Positions 4,039 to 46,102 of a stretch of 64,000 nucleotides of DNA are shown here, in pieces. Source of the stretch: Dehalococcoidia bacterium (GTDB lineage Bacteria; Chloroflexota; Dehalococcoidia; Plut-88900); NCBI GenBank assembly GCA_965197585.1, contig OZ240215.1, forward strand, positions 64,001 through 128,000, given 5' to 3'. How positions within the stretch are numbered: position 1 is the first letter of the stretch; every line of letters begins with the position of its first letter. Made by a program: the position numbers and the translations under genes. The notes below the pieces were generated by a model. The model was not told where the DNA came from. It worked only from the letters and a program-made list of their open reading frames with translations, and did not search any database.

Positions 4039-4482
4039 CTACCCCAAATCGCCGAGAGCAAATGTGAGCTCTCCGGCCGCCACAGTCTTCCCGTCTACCT
4101 CGGCCTTCGCCTTCGCCTTGCCCACCGGCCCCCGCATCCGCTCCAGGGACACCTCCATGCGGAGTACGTCACCGGGCTGTACAGGCTTGCGGAACCGAAA
4201 CGAGTCGATCCCTGCGAAATAGCCAACCTTGCCCCGGTTCTCCTCCAAGCTTAGTAGCGCCACGGACCCGACCTGCGCCAGGGCCTCCACGATGAGGACT
4301 CCGGGCATGATGGGGTAACCGGGAAAGTGGCCCTGGAAGAATGGCTCGTTGATGCTGACGTTCTTCAGTCCCACGGCTCGGGACCCTGGTTCCAGCTCTA
4401 TAATCCGGTCGACCATCAGGAAGGGCCACCGGTGAGGCAGAAGTTCCTGGATCTGTTGGGCCGACAGCACCGTTTCGCTCAT
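4039..4482 (-). CDS. fabZ: 3-hydroxyacyl-ACP dehydratase
   Basis: [36 protein letters not shown]; start set at MSETVL. Confidence 0.95.
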
Positions 4483-14781: not shown

Positions 14782-16287
14782 CTAGCTGTCCGACTGCGCG
14801 GTGCCGGCCGAGGCTAGATCAGAGATAGCCTCCTCGAAGCCTTGCTGGTCTCGGTTGGTGCGTAATAACTCCGCTAACCGGTCTACAATGGTCTCCTCCT
14901 CAGGCCCGACGGAATCCATGAACGGCAACCGTAGTATGCGTATCGCCCCCTCCGGATCTCGATAATGGATGTCTTGTAGATCGAAGAAAATCTGTACGTC
15001 CGGGTTGGTGAGATCATCCAACATCCACGGTTTCCTCGTCAGTTCCAGGAGGAAATCAGGGGCGCGATCGGCAAGGGTGAGCATATCCAGGATGATTGAC
15101 CTCTCGAATTCTTCTGGGTCCGGGTTGATGCTTCCAGAGTTTCGCGGGGGAACATAGGTTAAGCCGTCTTGGACCCAGGCCATCGCATTAATGGCAGCGG
15201 CGATGTCGGGCGCGGTCTCTTCCAGATCGAGAATTAGGACGTAGATGGCCTGCTCGTTTGTTATGCCACCCCCGCCAGAGTGATTGTCCAGGATGTAGTT
15301 AAGGGTGTCGGGGTCGTTCTTGGCGAGATCGAGGAACCGGGTCAGAGTCTGGTGGTCGACCCACTCAATTGTATCCATGAAGGGCATGTCGGCAATTAGG
15401 ATCACGGCATCCTCATTAATGGCAGCAATTTCGACGAGCCGCTCAAGAGCCGAGTCGTCCATGTCCGTCTGCGGCGGCAACCAGGCCCGGTCTGAGTCCA
15501 GGAAGTGTCTGAAAGTTCTCTTGGAAACCCTTGCCAGCTTTTGAAGCAGGGTGAGCCCCTCATGTTCGTGAAGGTATAGGCCGTCTTCTACCCAGTCTAA
15601 GGATGACGGTTCCGCAGCCGCGCCCGGGTCAACCGATTGCAGATAGACGAGGGGAATATGCGTTTCTTGATTAACTCCAGTGACTGATTCATGGCCGAGC
15701 AGGGAGGCAAGGCCTTCGGGATCAGACCAGGTTAGATCAACCATGAACTGTACAATGTCCGAGTCCCCCCACTCTATGGCATCCAGAAACGGCAACTGGA
15801 TGGCTTTGTACGCTGCGGCCTTGTCCCGAAAGGCTAAGGTATTCAGAAATCTCAGGACAAGCGGTTCAACGTGATGCGGATCGTTGTCGGGATCCCTTAG
15901 CCAGGGTTTCTTCACTATCTCGCAATAGACCTCTGGATGAAACTCTGCCAGGCTTCTGAGAGCATCCCCCTTGTACGGGTCGGTCATTGAAGCTTCGTCC
16001 ACGGCGCAGGGGAGGGCAAGGGCAGGGTAAGTGGGAGCAGTGGTCGCCGAGGGCGCTATCACGACGGCAGTAGCCTGGGTCGGCGCTTGCGCAATTTCGA
16101 GTTCCGGCGGCACAGTCGGTATCGGGGTGCCGGTGGGTACGGGCGACAGTCCTACATTGGCTGGCGTTGGGTCAGGAATAGGGGTTACTGGTGCCAGCCC
16201 ACAGGCCCAAACCAAGGATAGAGTTGCCACGGACAAAACGGCTAACCTTAGCCGTCTGCCTACTAGTCTCGGCCCCTCGCTCTCCAA
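14782..16287 (-). CDS. Hypothetical repeat lipoprotein (paralog of the N-terminal half of the upstream gene)
   Basis: VWAC lipobox, PT linker, repeated W(V/L).DG(L/I)...E and (L/M)PF(L/M)D modules. Confidence 0.75.
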   Translation of the reverse strand: MESEGPRLVGRRLRLAVLSVATLSLVWACGLAPVTPIPDPTPANVGLSPVPTGTPIPTVPPELEIAQAPTQATAVVIAPSATTAPTYPALALPCAVDEASMTDPYKGDALRSLAEFHPEVYCEIVKKPWLRDPDNDPHHVEPLVLRFLNTLAFRDKAAAYKAIQLPFLDAIEWGDSDIVQFMVDLTWSDPEGLASLLGHESVTGVNQETHIPLVYLQSVDPGAAAEPSSLDWVEDGLYLHEHEGLTLLQKLARVSKRTFRHFLDSDRAWLPPQTDMDDSALERLVEIAAINEDAVILIADMPFMDTIEWVDHQTLTRFLDLAKNDPDTLNYILDNHSGGGGITNEQAIYVLILDLEETAPDIAAAINAMAWVQDGLTYVPPRNSGSINPDPEEFERSIILDMLTLADRAPDFLLELTRKPWMLDDLTNPDVQIFFDLQDIHYRDPEGAIRILRLPFMDSVGPEEETIVDRLAELLRTNRDQQGFEEAISDLASAGTAQSDS

Positions 16288-16408
16288 CGACCAACCTTTC
16301 CGGTAATTGCCTATCGCCTAAGTTTCTATTCAATTCTTCGTAAATGCCAACTAGCCAAAGGTCGCAGAGACGGAGAGAGAACACAAGTGTTTGGGTATGG
16401 GGATGGGG

Positions 16409-19216
16409 TCATTGCGACTCCCCGTAGTACCACCGGTCTATAATCCCTCCGGCGGTATCGGCAAACCCGGGTGAGGCATCCTCAACGAAGGCCTTTCGCG
16501 CATAGCAAAGACCTCTTTCGACTCCGAAGCACTCATCATTGTGTTCTTCATTCCGCATCTTTAGGTACAGCCCGCCGAATCCTCTCCGGAACTCTTCGCC
16601 GCCCAGGCTGTTGTACAAGTCCGCATACAACCCCAGTCCCATCGTGTAACTGCACCGCGACCACCAAACCGTATCTTCATCAAGGCCTGGTCCGTACGTT
16701 AATTGGTCTAGTTCTCCCAGAGTCTTGGCCAGGCTACATCCCGTCTCACTCAGCGAATTCGCTGCTTGGTCAAGCTCGCCAATCACTATTTTAGCCATCA
16801 GCTCGGCTGCACCTTCTCGAATCCATGGAGGATAAAAGTTCCAATAGGTATGGCCAGCCTCATGGGCGATAAGCTCCGTGTCCTCCACGTATTCAGGATG
16901 GACATAGATGATCCCGCTGGGACCTCCCCCTCCCCTCGGCCCCTGCCCTTCTATCGCAACTATGGCTGCCACGTTACTGGGGTAGGCCACTTTCATAAAG
17001 GTCTCGTATTGGCGGACGACATCCTCCAGTATGGCTAGGGTGCGGAAAGTACCGGGCATACTGCGGAGTGTCGCTACCGTCATTTCACCGGCAAGCGGGA
17101 GCGTTATATTGCGTTCTTCCCGGTAAATTTGTTCTGGGTCCAGCAGTGAAGTCAACTTTTCTGGTGCCTTTTCTGCCACCGTAGCCAGTACCGCAATGAC
17201 TAGGGCGTCCTCATCAACAATGCCTTCGCTCAGAGATGGGTGGTTCAATACCTGTTGCAAGTGACCCCCGTCTCCGTCATGGTGCAGACTCGCCAACGCG
17301 GATACTGCTGCTGCATCCAGTGGATCAAACGCATCCAAAAACGGCATAGCCACTATTCTCAAAGTTGTGTCTACGTCCCGCTGGCTCCATGACTGTCCGG
17401 ATATGGATATCAGTCTGGAAATCGCATGTGCTTCTCCTTGGGTAATTCCATCCCATACCCAACGCTTTTCTATTATTGCCATAAAGACGGCATCGGTTTC
17501 TAAGGCCAGTTCAGTCAATGCCCAAACGGCATTGCCCTCAGATGCACCAAGCCCATCCTGGATCCAGGGCAGGGCCTCTATCGCTTTGTATTCTTCAGGT
17601 TGTCGTACCTTTACCTCCAGTAGTTGCACTGCTGAAATATTGTCATTTGAAATTCCTCCCGCCAGTGCCGGATCTGACAAAAATTCACGAAGCGATACTC
17701 CACTGTATTGTTCCAACTCGGCCAGTGTCCAAAGAACTTCTGAGTCATATGGGTCAATCTTGTCCAGGAACGGCATGTTCAGAAGTTGGACAGTCACTTG
17801 CGGATAGCTGCTGGTGAGGTTAAATAATGGGCCCATTGCGCTCAATTCCACGCTGCTCACGCCGTCTCGTACCCAGGACTTGGCTGTTAGTGCCAAAATA
17901 ACCTCCGGGGCCCGAGTGCCCATTTCGATCAAGCTATCCACAATGCTTGTCTCATGTTCTGTCGGGTCTGGATTGGCGCTTCCCCAATCCCTTGGTGGCA
18001 CGTAAGTAATCCCGTCCTGTACCCATGGCAGGCCGCTAATGGCAGTGCCTATCTCAGGGTTGGTCTGCTCAAGCTATAGAAGCGATACCTGGATAACAAG
18101 TTGATCTGTGATCCCATCCGCTAGAGTCGGGTGTGAGAGGACTTTTTGTAAGCTCTCTGGATTGTTTTGGGCCAATTCCTGTAAACGGCGCACGGTCTCC
18201 AGGTCTCCAAATTCAATGGTCTCCATGAATGGCATCGAGACCAAACAAATGACCGTGTTTTCATCGGACTTACTCCAGTCGACCAATCTCTCAAGCGTTG
18301 CGTTGTCGGCCCCTGTCTGCAAAGGTATCCAGGCGAGTTCACTGTCCATTAGGTGCCTGAATAATCCGTTTGAAGCAATGGCTGCTTGTACAAGAAGCCG
18401 CACGGTACCGTGCTCAAACTGATGGAGCCCATCCATGACCCAAGCTTGGGCAGCAATTTCGCTGGCCGCAGCTGGATTATTGAGTTCAAGGTAGATCAGT
18501 GGTATCGGCTTACTGTCTCCGGATTGCACCGAATCGTGAGTGAGGAATTCCACGAAACTCACCGGGTCCGACTGGGATAAGCCCGCCATGAATTGCATAG
18601 CGTCCTGGTCACTCCACTCAATGGTATCCAGGAACGGCAGACTCACCACTTTAATCGCTGCTGCCTCGTCCGGGATAATCATCCGATCCAGGTAAAGCAA
18701 TACTACGGGCTCAATGCCGCCTCGGTCGTCCCCTCCTTCCGTTATCCATGGCCGCTTCACCAGTTCACAATATGCCCAGGGGAACCGATGCCATAGCGTA
18801 GCGAGGACGCCCTCTTTATAGGGATGCGGGTCTGCTATTGCTACCTGTGCCGGGTTGCAAGGTGGGACAGGTGTAGGTATGGCGGTTGGTGTAGGTATTT
18901 GCGTCGGAGTAGCTGTCGGGGCAGGAATAGGTGTTGAAGTAGGAACAGCGGTGCTTGTGGGAATCGGCACAGGCGTAACCTCCGACACCGGAGATGCCTC
19001 AGGTGTCAGGCCGGCTTCCAATGTCGGCGTTGGGTCTTCGGTCGATGGCACTCTCTCAGTAGGTGACGGTGCTGTCGTAGTCGCTGTCGTAGTCGAGTCC
19101 GGGGTTGGAGTGCCTCGCGATGGAGCGCAAGCCCATATCAAAGCCAAGACAAGCAAAACTACCGATCCACTCCACACAATGCGGGGCCAGAATCCCGCCC
19201 TTCCACTCCCCTTCAT
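16409..19216 (-). pseudogene. Repeat lipoprotein with C-terminal HExxH zinc metallopeptidase domain, interrupted by in-frame TAG at 18074-18076
   Basis: ORFs 18074..19216 and 16409..18001 are in the same frame; the gap translates as LEQTNPEIGTAISGLPWVQDGITYV, aligning with paralog LEETAPDIAAAINAMAWVQDGLTYV; AHEAGH...WIREG motif. Confidence 0.7.
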
Positions 19217-26120: not shown

Positions 26121-26306
26121 TTGGCGAAGTGCGAAATATGTAACAAGATTCCCCGCTTCGGCAGGAACGTAAGCCACTCCAAAAGGCACACGCCCCGGAT
26201 GTACAGGCCGAACGTTCACCCCGTGCGGCTGATGATAAATGGCAAGCGGCAGCGGATGAAGGTCTGCACCCGTTGCCTCAGGACCCAGTACAAGCAAGCA
26301 TCTTGA
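26121..26306 (+). CDS. rpmB: 50S ribosomal protein L28 (zinc-binding CxxC/CxxC form)
   Basis: AKCEICNK..FGRNVSHSKRHTPR...PN...VCTRCLR; TTG start; divergent from DAK2 gene as usual. Confidence 0.93.
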   Translation: MAKCEICNKIPRFGRNVSHSKRHTPRMYRPNVHPVRLMINGKRQRMKVCTRCLRTQYKQAS

Positions 26307-27061
26307 CTTTGTCTGCCCTCCTCCGCCGACGCACGGTTGCGCCTGCTGTGGCGTTGTTCTTCTGCGCGCTTGTCGTTGGAGCTGCTTGGGCCTGCGGCGG
26401 ATCAACCGATTCTCCCGACCCCACTGCCACCCAGGCCCCGTCTGCCACCACCGCGCCGGATGCCGACCCTGACCCCACATCCGAGCCCGCTGCCACACCG
26501 ACTGCCTTATCGGTGATCACTCTTGACCCTGATGGCAGGGGATGGAATGTCCTCGGCTCGGCGGACGCGTCAGTCACCGTCCTGGACTATAGTGACTTCC
26601 AATGACCCGGCTGTAGGCGCTGGGCCCTTGGAACGGCCCAGGAGATCAAATCGACCTACGTGGACGACGGCAGGGTCAAGGTGGAATACCGCCATTACGC
26701 CGTCCTGGGTCCCGAATCGCGCCTGATGGCTCAAGGCACCGAGTGTGCGGGTGAGCAGGGTGAATTCTGGAAATATCACGACGCGATATTCCAGGAGCGG
26801 ACCAGGGAGATAGGCGTCCAGGGGCAAATAGCTCGTGCCAATACCATCGGCTTGGACATTCCCAAGTTCACCGCCTGCATGGAAAACGAGACCTATGAGC
26901 ACATTGTCGACGGGGACTTGGCTCAGGCTCGAGAGGATGGCGTAACCACCCAGCCCACCATCTTCATCCTGAGCGGCGACCAGATGACGAAGTTCGTCGG
27001 GGCACGCGCCTTCGACGTGGTTTCCGCAGTCATAGACGAATACCTGGGCTCCGCGTACTAG
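26303..27061 (+). CDS. DsbA/BdbD-like thioredoxin-fold lipoprotein, putative selenoprotein (UPGC; TGA at 26603-26605)
   Basis: AWAC lipobox, PT linker, LGSADASVTVLDYSDFQ-TGA-PGC continues in frame into ECAGEQGEFWKYHDAIF...GVTTQPTIF; downstream hairpin; TTG start overlapping rpmB stop is inferred. Confidence 0.85.
26620..26641 (+). promoter_or_regulatory. Putative SECIS hairpin 1
   Basis: CTGGGCC-CTTGGAAC-GGCCCAG, loop starts 22 nt after TGA. Confidence 0.7.
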
Positions 27062-27099
27062 TGACCCGAGCGCCAATGCTGGGACACGGGTCTTCTCAA

Positions 27100-28629
27100 A
27101 TGTCCATTCTCCCCCGACGCCTGACATTCACCCGACTTGGCATCCTCCTATTTTGTGTAACCGTCCTTGCTATGGTTTCATGGGCCTGCTCGTCGAGCCC
27201 TGAGATAGTTGATCCTACATCTACCGGCGCGCCGGTCCCCACTAACACCCTCGTCCCTCCATCGACTTCAGCTCCCTCCGACGCTCCTCCCACCGACACC
27301 CCTCCACCCGATTCTACGCCGGGCGCACCTCCAACGACCCGGGACTGGAATGTCCTCGGGTCGCCGGACGCCTCCGTGTCCATCGCCGATTTCGGCGACT
27401 TCCTCTGACCCGGTTGCAAGCATTGGGCCCGTGGTGCGGCCCTCGAAGTGAAGAAAGCCTACATCGAGACTGGGTTGGTGAACCTGAACTACTTCCATTT
27501 CCCTCATATCAACGATGATTCTTACTTGGCGGCCCACGCCACCGAGTGTGCGGGAGAACAGGGCTCTTTCTGGCAGTACCATGACACTCTTTACGAAAAA
27601 CAGGGCGAGGGCGGCAGAGGGGTGGAAAGACTCGAAGGGTTCGCCGAAGACCTTGGCCTCGACACGGGACGCTTCTCGGCTTGCATGGAAGCCAGAACCT
27701 ACGACGGCGTTATTCAAAGAGACATAAATCTGGCCCTGCGGAACGAAGTCTCGGTCACCCCCACCATCTTCGTCCTGTCCACCGACCCCAACCAAACTGG
27801 AACAAAATTCGACGGTTCGCCTTCCTTCGAAACCATTTCCGCAGTAATTGATGAGTTGCTGATGACGCAGCAACCGGCCCCTGCCCCAACACCCACCGTA
27901 ACCCTAGTCCCGACATCCACTTCCGCCCCTGCTCCCGTTGCAAGTTCCACGCCTGCTCCGACGCCTACGGCGGCATCTTTGGCGCCATCCCCAACACCAA
28001 TAGTCAGTCCCGTCCCTACACCTGCCCCGACTCCCTCTCCCACCCCCGTCCCAACTGCAGTCCCGACACCCTCTCCAACTCCCAATCCAACCGCCACGTC
28101 TGTGCCGGAACCCGTCGGCAGAGTATGGAATGTTCTAGGTTCCCTGGATGCGCCCGTCACATTGGAGGAATTCAGCGACTTTCAATGAGGCGTTTGCAGG
28201 AATTGGGCCCTTGGACCGGCCCAGGAGATAAAGCGACAATACATAGACCAAGGTCAGGTAAAGCTGGTGCTCCGCCACCGGACCACTTTCGGTCCCGCCT
28301 CGAGAATCATGTCCTTGGGAACGGAGTGCGCCGGTGAGCAAGATAAGTTTTGGGAGTTTCATGACGCCCGAATTCGAAGCGGCTCCGGGAGCGTCCAAGG
28401 CCAGATCAGCTTGGCACAGACTCTGGGTCTGAACGTGCCCCAATTTACCGCTTGCATGGAAGAGCAGAGGTACCAGAAATTCTTGGAAGAAGACCGAGCC
28501 GCCGCTCAAGCCAACGGCATCTTCACTCAGCCCGCCTTCATCATTAGTAGTGGTGGACAGTCAATCAAGCGGATTGGATCGCTGACCGCTGGACAGCTCG
28601 GGCCGATAATCGACGAATTGCTAAACTAG
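27100..28629 (+). CDS. Tandem two-domain DsbA/BdbD-like lipoprotein with two putative selenocysteines (UPGC at 27406-27408, UGVC at 28186-28188)
   Basis: ORFs 27061..27408, 27448..28188 and 28267..28629 share one frame; both TGAs occupy the first Cys position of CxxC; SWAC lipobox; PT linkers; start 27061 or 27100. Confidence 0.85.
27425..27442 (+). promoter_or_regulatory. Putative SECIS hairpin 2
   Basis: GGGCC-CGTGGTGC-GGCCC, loop starts 22 nt after TGA. Confidence 0.65.
28204..28223 (+). promoter_or_regulatory. Putative SECIS hairpin 3
   Basis: TGGGCC-CTTGGACC-GGCCCA, loop starts 22 nt after TGA. Confidence 0.7.
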
Positions 28630-42782: not shown

Positions 42783-43823
42783 CTAGGGCTCTACAATCGA
42801 CTCGATAACCGACGTACTCGAATGTCCATGAGAGAATATAGGCACCATCGCCGAGACCGCACCTCCCGTACCCCCCGCCACGTACAGGTGCAATTGCTCG
42901 GGTAACGTGGGAACGGATCGCTCCTCACTGACCGGGTCTTCGAACGGTGTGACGCCGCCCAGCTCATATGCCCGCTCGGCGTCGAATACCAGCCCCGGGC
43001 TCATTTCGTTCACGCGCTCTGCTATATATTCCTTGATCTCGGCCTTTGTCATGCCCGCGGGCGCTATATTGAAAAGATGCTCGCCGCTGATGATTAACAC
43101 CAACTCGCCGTGGCAATTGATGTTCGCGGCTATGGCATGGCTGATCGTGTCCAGGATCGCCTTGGGCGAGTTGTCGGCGTAGTTGAACACCGGGATTGGG
43201 GGCAGAGCGGGGAAAAGGCTTACTGTACTCGTCGATGGATCGAAACCCTTCTCGACATGATACGGTTCCCAGATGCTGCTCTCCTCATCCTCCGCGATGC
43301 AGCAGGTGTAACGCGCCGGGCTCCCGAACGCCGACTTGTCCGTCACGCCCGGTATCTCCCCGCAAACGTTCATCAATATCAGCCGCAGCGTCCGCCCGAT
43401 AGTTGAGTTCGCCCGCCACCCGGGCCCGAACAGGTTCCACCCGGAGTTGATGTCCAGCTTCTTCCGGATGGGCCCATTCACCACGATCATCGGCGCCGAC
43501 ATTCCGGATGTCGTCTCGCTTATGCCTGAGAGGTTGAACTCCGGCTTTAGCATCGCCCTCACAGCGGCCGCAACTACCGGAGCGTACTCAGCCTTGCAGC
43601 CGGCCATTATGGCGTTGACGGCAACCTTCTGAGCGGTGACGATCCAGTTCCGGCTCTCCCGTGTCCCGAGCACCTCATCAGGCGAGAGCCCCCCGGCTTC
43701 GAGGAATGCCTGCACGGCCTCCGCGGTGGGGGGCACGACGGGCAGGCCATCAGTCAAGCCCTGTTCGAAGAAATACTCGATTGCCTGGATAGTATCGGGA
43801 AGCTCTGTGCCCTTGGTCGTCAT
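42783..43823 (-). CDS. Uncharacterised 'TDGLPVVPPT' protein, paralog 1
   Basis: TDGLPVVPPT, NAIMAGC, VNGP, RANSTIGR, CIAEDEE. Confidence 0.85.
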   Translation of the reverse strand: MTTKGTELPDTIQAIEYFFEQGLTDGLPVVPPTAEAVQAFLEAGGLSPDEVLGTRESRNWIVTAQKVAVNAIMAGCKAEYAPVVAAAVRAMLKPEFNLSGISETTSGMSAPMIVVNGPIRKKLDINSGWNLFGPGWRANSTIGRTLRLILMNVCGEIPGVTDKSAFGSPARYTCCIAEDEESSIWEPYHVEKGFDPSTSTVSLFPALPPIPVFNYADNSPKAILDTISHAIAANINCHGELVLIISGEHLFNIAPAGMTKAEIKEYIAERVNEMSPGLVFDAERAYELGGVTPFEDPVSEERSVPTLPEQLHLYVAGGTGGAVSAMVPIFSHGHSSTSVIESIVEP

Positions 43824-43832
43824 GATCTCTTT

Positions 43833-44873
43833 CTAGGCCGCGGATACGGGTTCAAGTACGCTTTTACTCAGAACGCCCTGTCCCCACAACGGAATAATCG
43901 TGGAATGTCCGCCGCCCTCTCCACCTGCGACCAGCAGGGTAATGCCTTCAGGAGTGGTGGAAATGCCCGAGTCGTCCGGGTCATCGGTGCCCGGGTACCA
44001 GGTCCCGCCCAGCGCCCCGATCCGCTCCCGTTCGTAGGCGAACTGAGGCTGAAACTCGTTGGCTCGCTTGGCCAGGTATTCCTTGACGTCCTGCTTGCTC
44101 CATCCCGCCGGCCCGATGTTCTGCGCGTGCTCGGGGCTCATTATGAGCATTACTGGCCCGTGGCAGACCAGGTTGGCGGCGATGGTGTGGCTCAGCGTGT
44201 CGAGAATCTGCTCCGGGATCGGGTCCGACTGGTTGAACACCTCCATTGGATGACAGACAGGGAAAAGGCCCACCGCACTCGACTCAAGCGCCATCCCCCG
44301 CTCGACGTGATACGGCTCCCATGGGCTCGCTTCTTCGTTCTCAGCTATGCAGAAGGTGTACCGCCCCGGGTGCCCGAACGTCGACTTATCTGTCACACCC
44401 GGAATTTCCCTGCATACGTTCATCAGCACGAGCCTGAGAGTACGGCCGATGGTAGCGTTGGCCCGCCACCCGGGCCCGAACAGGTTCCATCCCCCGTTGA
44501 CGTTTAGTTCCTTGCGGATTGGGCCGTTCACTACGATAAGTGGCGCCGAGGTCCCTGCCGTCTCCGCGATGGCGGATGCGTTGAACTCGGGCTTCAGTAG
44601 AGCCCGTATGGACGCAAGCACAACTGGTGCGTATTCGGCCTTGCAGCCCGCCATCACAGCGTTGACCGCCACTTTCTGAGCGGTCACGACCCAGTTACGG
44701 CTCGCCCGAGTCCCTATCACCTCCCCGGGCTCCGTACCCCCAGCCTCCAAAAACGCGCCCACGGTTTCCGCCGTAGGAGGCACGACAGGGAGGCCGTCTG
44801 TCATTCCCTGCTCGTAGAAATACTCAATCGCCTCGACGGTATCCGGTAATTGAATTCCGGCGGATTCGCTCAA
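43833..44873 (-). CDS. Uncharacterised 'TDGLPVVPPT' protein, paralog 2
   Basis: Tandem paralog of 42783..43823, same length and motifs. Confidence 0.85.
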   Translation of the reverse strand: MSESAGIQLPDTVEAIEYFYEQGMTDGLPVVPPTAETVGAFLEAGGTEPGEVIGTRASRNWVVTAQKVAVNAVMAGCKAEYAPVVLASIRALLKPEFNASAIAETAGTSAPLIVVNGPIRKELNVNGGWNLFGPGWRANATIGRTLRLVLMNVCREIPGVTDKSTFGHPGRYTFCIAENEEASPWEPYHVERGMALESSAVGLFPVCHPMEVFNQSDPIPEQILDTLSHTIAANLVCHGPVMLIMSPEHAQNIGPAGWSKQDVKEYLAKRANEFQPQFAYERERIGALGGTWYPGTDDPDDSGISTTPEGITLLVAGGEGGGHSTIIPLWGQGVLSKSVLEPVSAA

Positions 44874-45067: not shown

Positions 45068-46102
45068 CTAATTCCGGAAATGAGGCATGATCTCTTCACT
45101 GAACTTACGCATCATGCCTATCTTGTCGAAGATCGTGAAGAGGACGGTGGAGATGGTGGTAACGCCCATGTTGCCCAATTCCTCGATCTGCTGCCTGATC
45201 CCCTCCGACGGACCTGTGAGGTGGTAGGTGTCGATCATCCTTTGGGTGACGAGCTTGGCATGAGGCGCGTCAACGTGTTCATGGAAATACTCGTTGTAGG
45301 CCTTGGCCGCGTTCGCCGAGTCACTCATCAGCTCTTCCACTATCCCCGGCTCCCGATGCTCCATCCGCCTCCGAAGATCATGAATCTCCGGTACGTCCCG
45401 GCTGAAGAACTGGTGCATTTTGATGTACATCGTCGGGTACGACGAAACCTCTTTACGCGCCTCCTCCTTGGTATCGGAAATGTAGGTCATGTTGCGGCAC
45501 CAGATGTCTATCTCCCCCGGGTCCCGACCCGCCTCTTCCGCTCCCTGGTGTATCAACTCCACCCGCCACTTCGCCATCTCCGGATGCACCCCAATGAAAA
45601 TGGCCCCGTCGGCTATCTTTCCCGCCAGCTTGCACAGCTTCGGCCCGTCCACTGCCAGGTAAATGGGAACCTTGGACTTTGACCACTCCGAGTGCATCTT
45701 GGCCCCCTGCCACTCCACCTCTTCCCCGGCCATGTAACCCCGCAGAAAATTAATAGCCTTTTCTACCTCCTTGGTGGTACGGGGCCGCATCGATTTACCG
45801 AACCGCCCCCCCGCCCCCAGCCCCAGAATCGCCCTCCCCCCCGACACTTCGTTCAGGGTGGCATGGCCCGTCGCAGTGACCGACGGGTGGTAGGTTATCG
45901 GGTCCGTGACCGCGGACATCAACCCGATACGTTTAGTGCTCAGCGCCGCTATGGTCAGGCTGGAATACATGTCCCGGGACAGGTTCGGCTGGTCTACCCA
46001 CCCCATCATGGAAAAACCACACTCCTCGGCTGCCCTGGCGTGGGCCGGGATGTCGTAGGCAGGTATATTCCGCCCCATCCCGACAGTGAAATTCATCTTC
46101 AT
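45068..46102 (-). CDS. LLM (luciferase-like) class flavin/F420-dependent oxidoreductase
   Basis: AEECGF, TLNEVSGGRAILGLGAG, PIYLAVDGPK...AGKIADG. Confidence 0.9.
   Translation of the reverse strand: MKMNFTVGMGRNIPAYDIPAHARAAEECGFSMMGWVDQPNLSRDMYSSLTIAALSTKRIGLMSAVTDPITYHPSVTATGHATLNEVSGGRAILGLGAGGRFGKSMRPRTTKEVEKAINFLRGYMAGEEVEWQGAKMHSEWSKSKVPIYLAVDGPKLCKLAGKIADGAIFIGVHPEMAKWRVELIHQGAEEAGRDPGEIDIWCRNMTYISDTKEEARKEVSSYPTMYIKMHQFFSRDVPEIHDLRRRMEHREPGIVEELMSDSANAAKAYNEYFHEHVDAPHAKLVTQRMIDTYHLTGPSEGIRQQIEELGNMGVTTISTVLFTIFDKIGMMRKFSEEIMPHFRN

Follow-up and report, generated by a model that had tools for sequence, protein, structure and literature searches.

A 64,000-nt stretch of a Dehalococcoidia bacterium genome (assembly GCA_965197585.1, contig OZ240215.1, positions 64,001 to 128,000 of the forward strand; hereafter the window) carries on its plus strand, at 27100–28629, a gene whose reading frame contains two internal TGA codons. 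With a probability that we put at roughly three in four, this gene encodes a single exported, probably lipid-anchored protein with two DsbA/BdbD-like selenocysteine (Sec, U) domains, produced through two hairpin-directed recoding events. Sec would be the N-terminal nucleophilic residue of the CXXC motif in each domain (UPGC and UGVC). For the full-length product, SelB-type recoding would have to occur twice, independently, and each event would be directed by a separate hairpin that lies within the coding sequence, some 20 nt past the UGA. The upstream gene would encode a third, single-domain Sec paralogue, and all three domains would descend from one Sec-bearing ancestor.

One reading frame with two TGA codons

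When TGA is read as Sec, positions 27100–28629 (+) encode 509 residues, with exactly two TGA codons and no further stop before the TAG at 28627–28629. The first TGA (UGA1, 27406–27408, +) would specify Sec103 (U103) in the context FLUPGC, and the second (UGA2, 28186–28188, +) Sec363 (U363) in the context FQUGVC. Under genetic code table 11 the same frame is split into three open reading frames (ORFs), at 27061–27408, 27448–28188 and 28267–28629. The candidate start is ATG 27100; GTG 27061, which overlaps the TAG of the upstream gene, and ATG 27076 are the other in-frame starts, and all three are conserved in the translations of two related loci (L002 and L003).

The translation begins with a putative signal peptide (residues 1–30, 27100–27189), which has an RR pair in the n-region, a hydrophobic core and a putative lipobox, SWAC, ending at Cys30. 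It is followed by a Pro/Thr/Ser-rich linker of about 50 amino acids (aa) (linker 1, residues 31–80, 27190–27339) and by the first DsbA-like domain (residues 81–254, 27340–27861), with UPGC, a second Cys pair (ECAGEQ / SACME) and TP at the cis-Pro position. Linker 2, about 85 aa rich in Pro, Thr, Ser and Ala (residues 255–340, 27862–28119), is hypervariable in length and sequence and stays in frame in all four genomes compared. The second DsbA-like domain (residues 341–509, 28120–28626) carries UGVC, a second Cys pair and QP at the cis-Pro position.

Bacterial lipoprotein signal peptides end in a lipobox with the consensus [LVI][ASTVI][GAS]C. The signal region of the fused gene ends V-S-W-A-C, in which the residue at -1 fits the lipobox and those at -2 (W) and -3 (S) do not. 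This VSWAC motif is conserved in 4/4 genomes, and Cys-containing relatives show IVAC, TLAC or LAAC in its place; the protein may be lipidated. As a separate observation, Arg-Arg(-Arg) occurs in the n-regions of the signal peptides of both the fused gene (LPRRLTF, 27115–27120) and the upstream gene (LLRRRTVAP, 26321–26329), a faint likeness to twin-arginine export signals.

Conservation of the fusion in related genomes

The comparison was based on 36 loci from a scan of a species-representative genome collection. The peptide patterns used for retrieval included EQDKFWEF of domain 2; the sample of loci is therefore biased, and this motif is over-represented in the outgroups. Three of the loci, from Dehalococcoidia metagenome-assembled genomes (L001–L003; 88, 84 and 77% identity), keep both TGAs, a single frame through both domains and the gene order. 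When the DNA of the four fused genes is aligned, 11 gap runs result; the length of each is a multiple of three, and all fall within linker 2. There, residue changes affect 42 of the 72 ungapped codon columns and 16 further columns are gapped, with the P/T/S/A make-up retained in frame. Domain 1 has 36 alignment columns with synonymous changes only and 17 in which the residue changes; for domain 2 the counts are 59 and 33. Judged from these alignments, both domains, on either side of each TGA, appear to be under purifying selection.

From the end of domain 1 up to UGA2, just one in-frame ATG, GTG or TTG codon is shared by all four genomes, a TTG within ..DELL (residue 253). This codon lies in the last helix of domain 1 and is followed by the Pro/Thr run, with no signal peptide. 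A consensus scan of linker 2 (27862–28119) gave no promoter-like or terminator-like site. A reading of this DNA made earlier from its letters alone (the sequence-only reading) had remarked that neither a signal peptide nor a start context precedes domain 2, and this held in all four genomes, none of which shares a conserved start with a signal peptide in the linker.

The middle table-11 ORF was also used as the query against a collection of 5.8 billion proteins, and the 18 closest matches were examined. Eleven of these, with identities that go down to 54%, start within domain 1, continue through a linker of 19–88 aa and have ..DFQ, the sequence directly before UGA2, as their last residues. Over both protein collections used, all matches of at least 60% identity are fragments of 121–256 aa cut at the TGAs; among the closest, longer matches (279–891 aa) reach at most 49% identity. 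A profile search that covered every ORF of the window and of the 36 loci placed two domains in a single ORF in the window and L001–L003 only. In three loci from Anaerolineae and Aggregatilineales genomes (L016, L017 and L019) two differing Cys DsbA-like genes lie adjacent as separate ORFs, and these pairs are the unfused counterpart of the di-Sec arrangement. The earlier proposal of one polypeptide needing two recoding events was thus borne out by L001–L003 together with the 11/18 in-frame database fragments.

Evidence for selenocysteine at the TGA codons

Counting the TGA of the upstream gene together with UGA1 and UGA2, the codon is kept at 12/12 sites (3 sites in 4 genomes, namely the window and L001–L003), each site being retained in 4/4. 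In a 48-row alignment of the domains the TGA column is invariant if TGA is read as Cys. It consists of 18 TGA rows (12 from this clade plus L005–L008, L013 and L020) and 30 Cys-codon rows, and in all 30 non-TGA rows the position is the first Cys of CXXC. Columns C28, C72, C114 and P140 of the same alignment are at least 90% conserved, and this degree of conservation holds for the Pro at the cis-Pro position and for the second Cys pair (ECAGEQ...ACME). Close Cys forms (P0004, P0006, P0007) are single-domain lipoproteins with long Pro/Thr spacers, have 38–49% identity and show FGDFQCSTC / CPAC. Nine of the 41 family-supported genes of the window end in TGA, so that the codon has not been reassigned in general. 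From these observations we infer that Sec is inserted at the TGA codons. The dipeptides PG and GV/GI are conserved and may set different redox potentials. No other obvious selenoprotein gene was seen among the 101 TGA-holding ORFs of at least 150 codons in the window, which were listed without a family scan.

Sec forms of the domain also occur outside this clade. Loci L005–L008 and L013 (Dehalococcoidia/SAR202; at about 4058–4121 of each locus) have a single-domain form with UPHC or UPYC. A Chloroflexota contig (L020:1745, UPYC) has a Sec form placed elsewhere in the domain tree and lacking a hairpin at the shared offset; it may represent an independent Cys-to-Sec change.

Hairpins downstream of the TGA codons

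According to the sequence-only reading each UGA of the fused gene has its own downstream hairpin, and such hairpins were indeed found, at 27425–27442 (+) for UGA1 and at 28203–28224 (+) for UGA2. Hairpin 1 has a stem of 5 bp (GGGCC/GGCCC) and the loop CGUGGUGC, with an energy of -10.3 kcal/mol (this and the next two hairpin energies are from 40-nt windows). Hairpin 2 has a stem of 7 bp (UUGGGCC/GGCCCAG) and the loop CUUGGACC, encodes W-A-L-G-P-A-Q and has an energy of -12.4 kcal/mol. A third hairpin follows the UGA of the upstream gene (26620–26641, +), with a 7-bp stem (CUGGGCC/GGCCCAG), the loop CUUGGAAC and an energy of -14.5 kcal/mol, and encodes W-A-L-G-T-A-Q. All three loops are of 8 nt, and at all three sites the loop begins 21 nt after the UGA. 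A GC-rich hairpin stands at the same offset at 17 of 18 Sec sites; in the L005/L008 group it has another stem sequence (UCGCCCU/AGGGCGA) in the same place.

The hairpins vary little at the synonymous level. Over the four genomes, none of the 8 third positions varies in the hairpin of the upstream gene, and one of 8, located in the loop, in hairpin 1. The single stem change in hairpin 2 (L002, G to A) turns a U-G pair into U-A, so that pairing is kept. Altogether, 2 of 24 third codon positions vary in the three hairpins compared with 158 of 503 in the rest of the domains (one-sided Fisher p 0.0095), and this synonymous constraint argues for selection on the RNA.

The model of the bacterial Sec insertion sequence (bSECIS) given in a 2026 review (PMC13188914) comprises a loop of 3–9 nt that has G at position 1 or 2, an upper stem of 4–16 bp, a distance of 16–37 nt from the UGA to the apical loop, and a minimum free energy (MFE) no higher than -7.5 kcal/mol; some bSECIS elements, by the same source, do not fit it. 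Loop length, stem length, spacing and MFE lie within these limits at all three sites. As to the G rule, the loop CGUGGUGC at UGA1 has G at position 2.

Fold, domain family and probable role

The fused protein matches the Pfam families Thioredoxin_4 (PF13462; E 2.5e-47, 161.6 bits vs a cut-off of 23.2) and DSBA (PF01323; 52.1 bits), each in two stretches, in agreement with the two DsbA domains of the sequence-only reading. The solved structures closest in sequence are those of B. subtilis BdbD (3eu3, E 5e-15) and C. diphtheriae DsbA (4pwo/4pwp). Structure prediction, which had been put forward as a check, returned a DsbA fold for domain 2: the AlphaFold2 model built from the 48-row alignment has a mean predicted local distance difference test score (pLDDT) of 96.1. 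In Foldseek comparisons the template modelling score over the query (TMq) was 0.85 to 3f4r, 7unn and 4pwp, and 0.84–0.85 across alpha-DsbA1, TsdA, DsbA and BdbD. Helix 1 of the model begins at residue 26, directly after U25, the place that the nucleophilic Cys has in the DsbA fold. A full-length AlphaFold2 model, made from a 4-row alignment, had a mean pLDDT of 42 and was discarded.

On our analysis the product is best read as a membrane-tethered, extracytoplasmic thiol-disulfide oxidoreductase of the BdbD/MdbA/alpha-DsbA-like kind, probably with two Sec active sites. Its role may be the oxidation or isomerisation of cysteines of secreted proteins, as for BdbD/MdbA, and the extended Pro/Thr spacers could hold the two catalytic heads at differing distances from the membrane.

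Origin of the three Sec domains

In a maximum-likelihood tree of 49 domains, the bootstrap of which is not fully settled, the 12 domains of this clade (3 paralogues in 4 genomes) group together with a support of 98/95, and inside this clade the sequences sort by paralogue, with one group for each of the three that spans the four genomes. The 12-domain clade has the other Dehalococcoidia/SAR202 Sec group as its sister (88/83). Within the clade, domain 2 pairs with the upstream gene (84/84). Their identity is 51.5%, compared with 45.5% between the upstream gene and domain 1 and 38.0% between domain 1 and domain 2.

The sequence-only reading had placed domain 2 nearer to the upstream gene than to domain 1. 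Identity (51.5% vs 38.0%) and the preferred tree (84/84) speak for this; on the other side, a clade of domain 1 with domain 2 was not rejected by the approximately unbiased (AU) test (log-likelihood difference 10.9, p 0.099). The motif WALGxAQE, which had been offered as a mark of that kinship, is present in both, but it is the translation of the hairpin itself, and the resemblance is therefore partly at the RNA level. The simplest history would be that a Sec-bearing ancestor was duplicated twice before the species split and that one copy was fused behind another. As the bacterial SECIS lies inside the ORF, each duplicated domain would have brought its own UGA and hairpin.

Observations against this interpretation and alternative explanations

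Several observations weigh against a di-Sec protein of this kind. The case is built on comparative sequence evidence and structure models. The genes selA, selB and selD and a tRNA-Sec are absent from the 64-kb window: ARAGORN found only a tRNA-Gly, an Rfam scan at gathering thresholds gave only that tRNA, with no SECIS and no tRNA-Sec, and sel families were absent among the 53 window ORFs scanned. NCBIfam and Pfam scans of window ORFs gave no sel gene, and several ORFs have no family match. Since the machinery is not in the window, the Sec-decoding trait of the organism is presumed. Likewise, no gene for a DsbB, VKOR or CcdA partner was present among the window ORFs scanned with the same two libraries, and the lipobox SWAC is non-canonical. 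As to the hairpins, the loops CUUGGACC (UGA2) and CUUGGAAC (upstream gene) have GG at positions 4–5 as folded, not at 1–2; 65-nt windows fold no better than shuffled sequences (z 0.12, -1.27 and -0.98), a comparison that told less than those by hairpin position and by synonymous sites; and the difference in mean energy between Sec sites (-12.2 kcal/mol) and 21 Cys sites (-7.1 kcal/mol) is confounded by the higher G+C of the Sec loci. Finally, 7 of the 18 closest database fragments leave the frame in linker 2 or just before UGA2, so that an intact frame cannot be claimed as universal. These seven may result from misassembly of C-rich runs or may be true frameshifted alleles. The fragments concerned (P0052, P0054, P0055, P0060 and P0062–P0064) then stay open in another frame.

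When two recoding events stand in series, as would be needed here, their efficiencies in bacterial Sec insertion multiply. This effect, the different hairpin strengths (5 bp at UGA1, 7 bp at UGA2) and the fact that a stop at UGA2 leaves domain 1 intact would suit selenium-gated isoforms, in which UGA2 is poorly decoded, the main product is a one-domain lipoprotein of 362 residues, and the 509-aa form appears only when selenium is plentiful, so that the length of the product would mirror selenium supply. We regard this as unlikely. Domain 2 is under purifying selection (59 vs 33) and is kept in 4/4 genomes, which means that it is made often enough to matter; termination at UGA2 would leave the protein with a useless tail of 85 aa and with the first strand of domain 2 as well; and sequence cannot separate regulated from merely leaky termination. 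Slightly more doubtful again is a selenium-metered switch, in which hairpins of unequal strength at UGA1 and UGA2 would set unequal read-through rates, so that the UPGC domain, near the membrane, is made alone when selenium is scarce and the distal UGVC domain, of another redox potential, is added only when it is plentiful. If this were true, the fused gene would form, with the upstream paralogue, a graded three-site extracellular selenoenzyme system.

We give little credence to the TGAs being true stops, with domain 2 or the pieces between the TGAs made from internal starts as two or three proteins. The table-11 ORFs do begin with GTG at 27448 and 28267, fragments of this sort are all that public protein sets contain, and separate DsbA-like genes neighbour each other in L016, L017 and L019. 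Yet the resulting pieces would be without the second Cys of the motif context, the whole fold or a signal peptide; the stretches 27409–27447 and 28189–28266, which hold the active-site xxC, are conserved as coding; and the linker, all of whose indels are in frame, has no conserved start with a signal peptide. Just as improbable is read-through by another amino acid (Cys, Trp or Gly, via a near-cognate or suppressor tRNA), or the loss of Sec from the organism with the genes now decaying. The missing Sec machinery in the window and the 7/18 frameshifted fragments would fit this, but all 12 TGAs are kept over four genomes while nearby third positions vary freely, hairpins with constrained synonymous sites stand at the SECIS position, both domains are under purifying selection, and the TGA stops of 9/41 ordinary genes exclude a general reassignment. 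Frame errors in the linker of some related contigs could be taken to suggest that the TGAs, or the joining of two genes, are artefacts of sequencing or assembly. This is scarcely credible, given that both TGAs and the fusion recur in four independent assemblies, and that eleven further fragments stop at the same ..DFQ. A single protein with two Sec domains thus remains our preferred explanation.

The upstream Sec paralogue, the gene row and other genes of the window

The fused gene is part of a conserved plus-strand row that begins with rpmB, encoding ribosomal protein L28 (26121–26306, +; Pfam Ribosomal_L28, 1.5e-19), with a TGA stop at 26304–26306. The upstream single-domain paralogue (26303–27061, +) has a TTG start and a TAG stop at 27059–27061. 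Its translation shows an AAWAC signal/lipobox, a Pro/Thr/Asp linker and a DsbA-like domain with UPGC (Pfam Thioredoxin_4, 2.7e-25), the UGA of which (26603–26605, +) would specify Sec101 (U101). The gene is conserved in L001–L003. The TGA stop of rpmB and the TTG start of the paralogue share two bases (cTTGAc, 26303–26306), and the TAG stop of the latter overlaps the possible GTG start of the fused gene (TAGTG, 27059–27063); the three genes look translationally coupled. In L001–L003 the order is the same as in the window: a yloV-like gene, rpmB, the single-domain gene, the fused gene, and convergent rpe and argH.

Elsewhere in the window, two adjacent minus-strand ORFs of 346 aa (42783–43823 and 43833–44873) are paralogues with 63% identity and adjoin a gene for an F420-dependent LLM-class oxidoreductase (45068–46102); neither has an NCBIfam or Pfam match at 1e-10 or 1e-5. 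Three large consecutive ORFs (501, 530 and 380 aa) at 14782–19216 (-) also have no match to these libraries at the same two thresholds.

Comparison with known systems and significance

The best NCBIfam match of the fused protein is NF041057, an equivalog model of 247 positions covering one domain and named 'Rcas_1661 family thioredoxin-like (seleno)lipoprotein'. The score of 258.9 bits (cut-off 190) is the sum of two stretches. Each half and the upstream gene also have NF041057 as their best match. Taken singly, the halves reach 122.2 and 142.3 bits, against 146.7 for the upstream gene; as each lies below 190, we treat them as close kin of NF041057 and not as proven members. By sequence, the di-Sec domains and the upstream gene may perhaps constitute a sister subfamily. 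What they have in common with NF041057 is a Thioredoxin_4/DsbA-like domain after a lipoprotein signal and a spacer, with Sec first in UxxC. The difference is that NF041057 has one domain and one Sec listed, whereas here two such domains with two Sec are fused. In PMC13188914 the family is tabulated as 'DsbG-like protein, UxxC, 1 Sec' and credited to Kryukov & Gladyshev 2004.

The same review counts 119 prokaryotic selenoprotein families, with one Sec in the 'vast majority' and 2–3 in a small subset; the earlier statement that most bacterial selenoproteins carry a single Sec agrees with this. Its table includes several double or fusion selenoproteins, credited to Haft & Tolstoy 2025, as well as UxxU Prx-like forms. 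With these the present gene has in common that more than one UGA is recoded per ORF, and some of them also fuse two Sec-bearing domains; among the table rows covered, none is a homotypic tandem of one redox domain.

Solved DsbA-like proteins, namely BdbD (3eu3), C. diphtheriae DsbA/TsdA (4pwo/4pwp, 7unn) and Wolbachia alpha-DsbA1 (3f4r), share with the domains described here a thioredoxin core with a helical insert, CXXC at the start of helix 1, a cis-Pro and a second conserved Cys pair, which for alpha-DsbA1 is indicated by the name of entry 3f4t (C97A/C146A). They differ in having Cys, a single domain and 20–27% identity; their roles are experimental, and that of the di-Sec protein is a predicted one. 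All-Cys tandem DsbA-like lipoproteins likewise have several Thioredoxin_4 domains after one lipoprotein signal: P0003, P0005 and P0008 contain three CPFC domains each, and P0009 contains two domains. These have 26–38% identity, need no recoding, and have short spacers in place of the 85-aa Pro/Thr run. In a 1.84-billion-protein library, most of the best 150 of 32,889 relatives show 2–6 matched stretches.

Eukaryotic selenoprotein P also carries many Sec per chain, and truncated isoforms through termination at later UGAs are discussed for it. It belongs to an unrelated family, and there SECIS elements of the 3′ untranslated region serve all UGAs, whereas in the present gene each UGA has a hairpin within the ORF.

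The domain family as a selenoprotein, multi-Sec bacterial proteins and tandem DsbA-like proteins are thus already known, and the di-Sec tandem layout is rare, not unprecedented. The literature searched contained no description of a tandem di-Sec DsbA/DsbG-like protein, although an earlier description is possible; nor did it contain a homotypic tandem with two Sec sites next to a gene with a third.

With this gene, the few bacterial proteins that have 2–3 Sec gain a homotypic tandem case, and in this Dehalococcoidia clade three Sec active sites are packed in a row of two genes. As the closest records in the two protein collections are fragments cut at the TGAs, annotation pipelines overlook the gene, and some of the selenium that these organisms need goes unnoticed with it. 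It would also provide a natural example of how Sec sites spread: because the SECIS lies inside the ORF and travels with the duplicated domain, duplication followed by fusion may give rise to a multi-Sec protein without new machinery.

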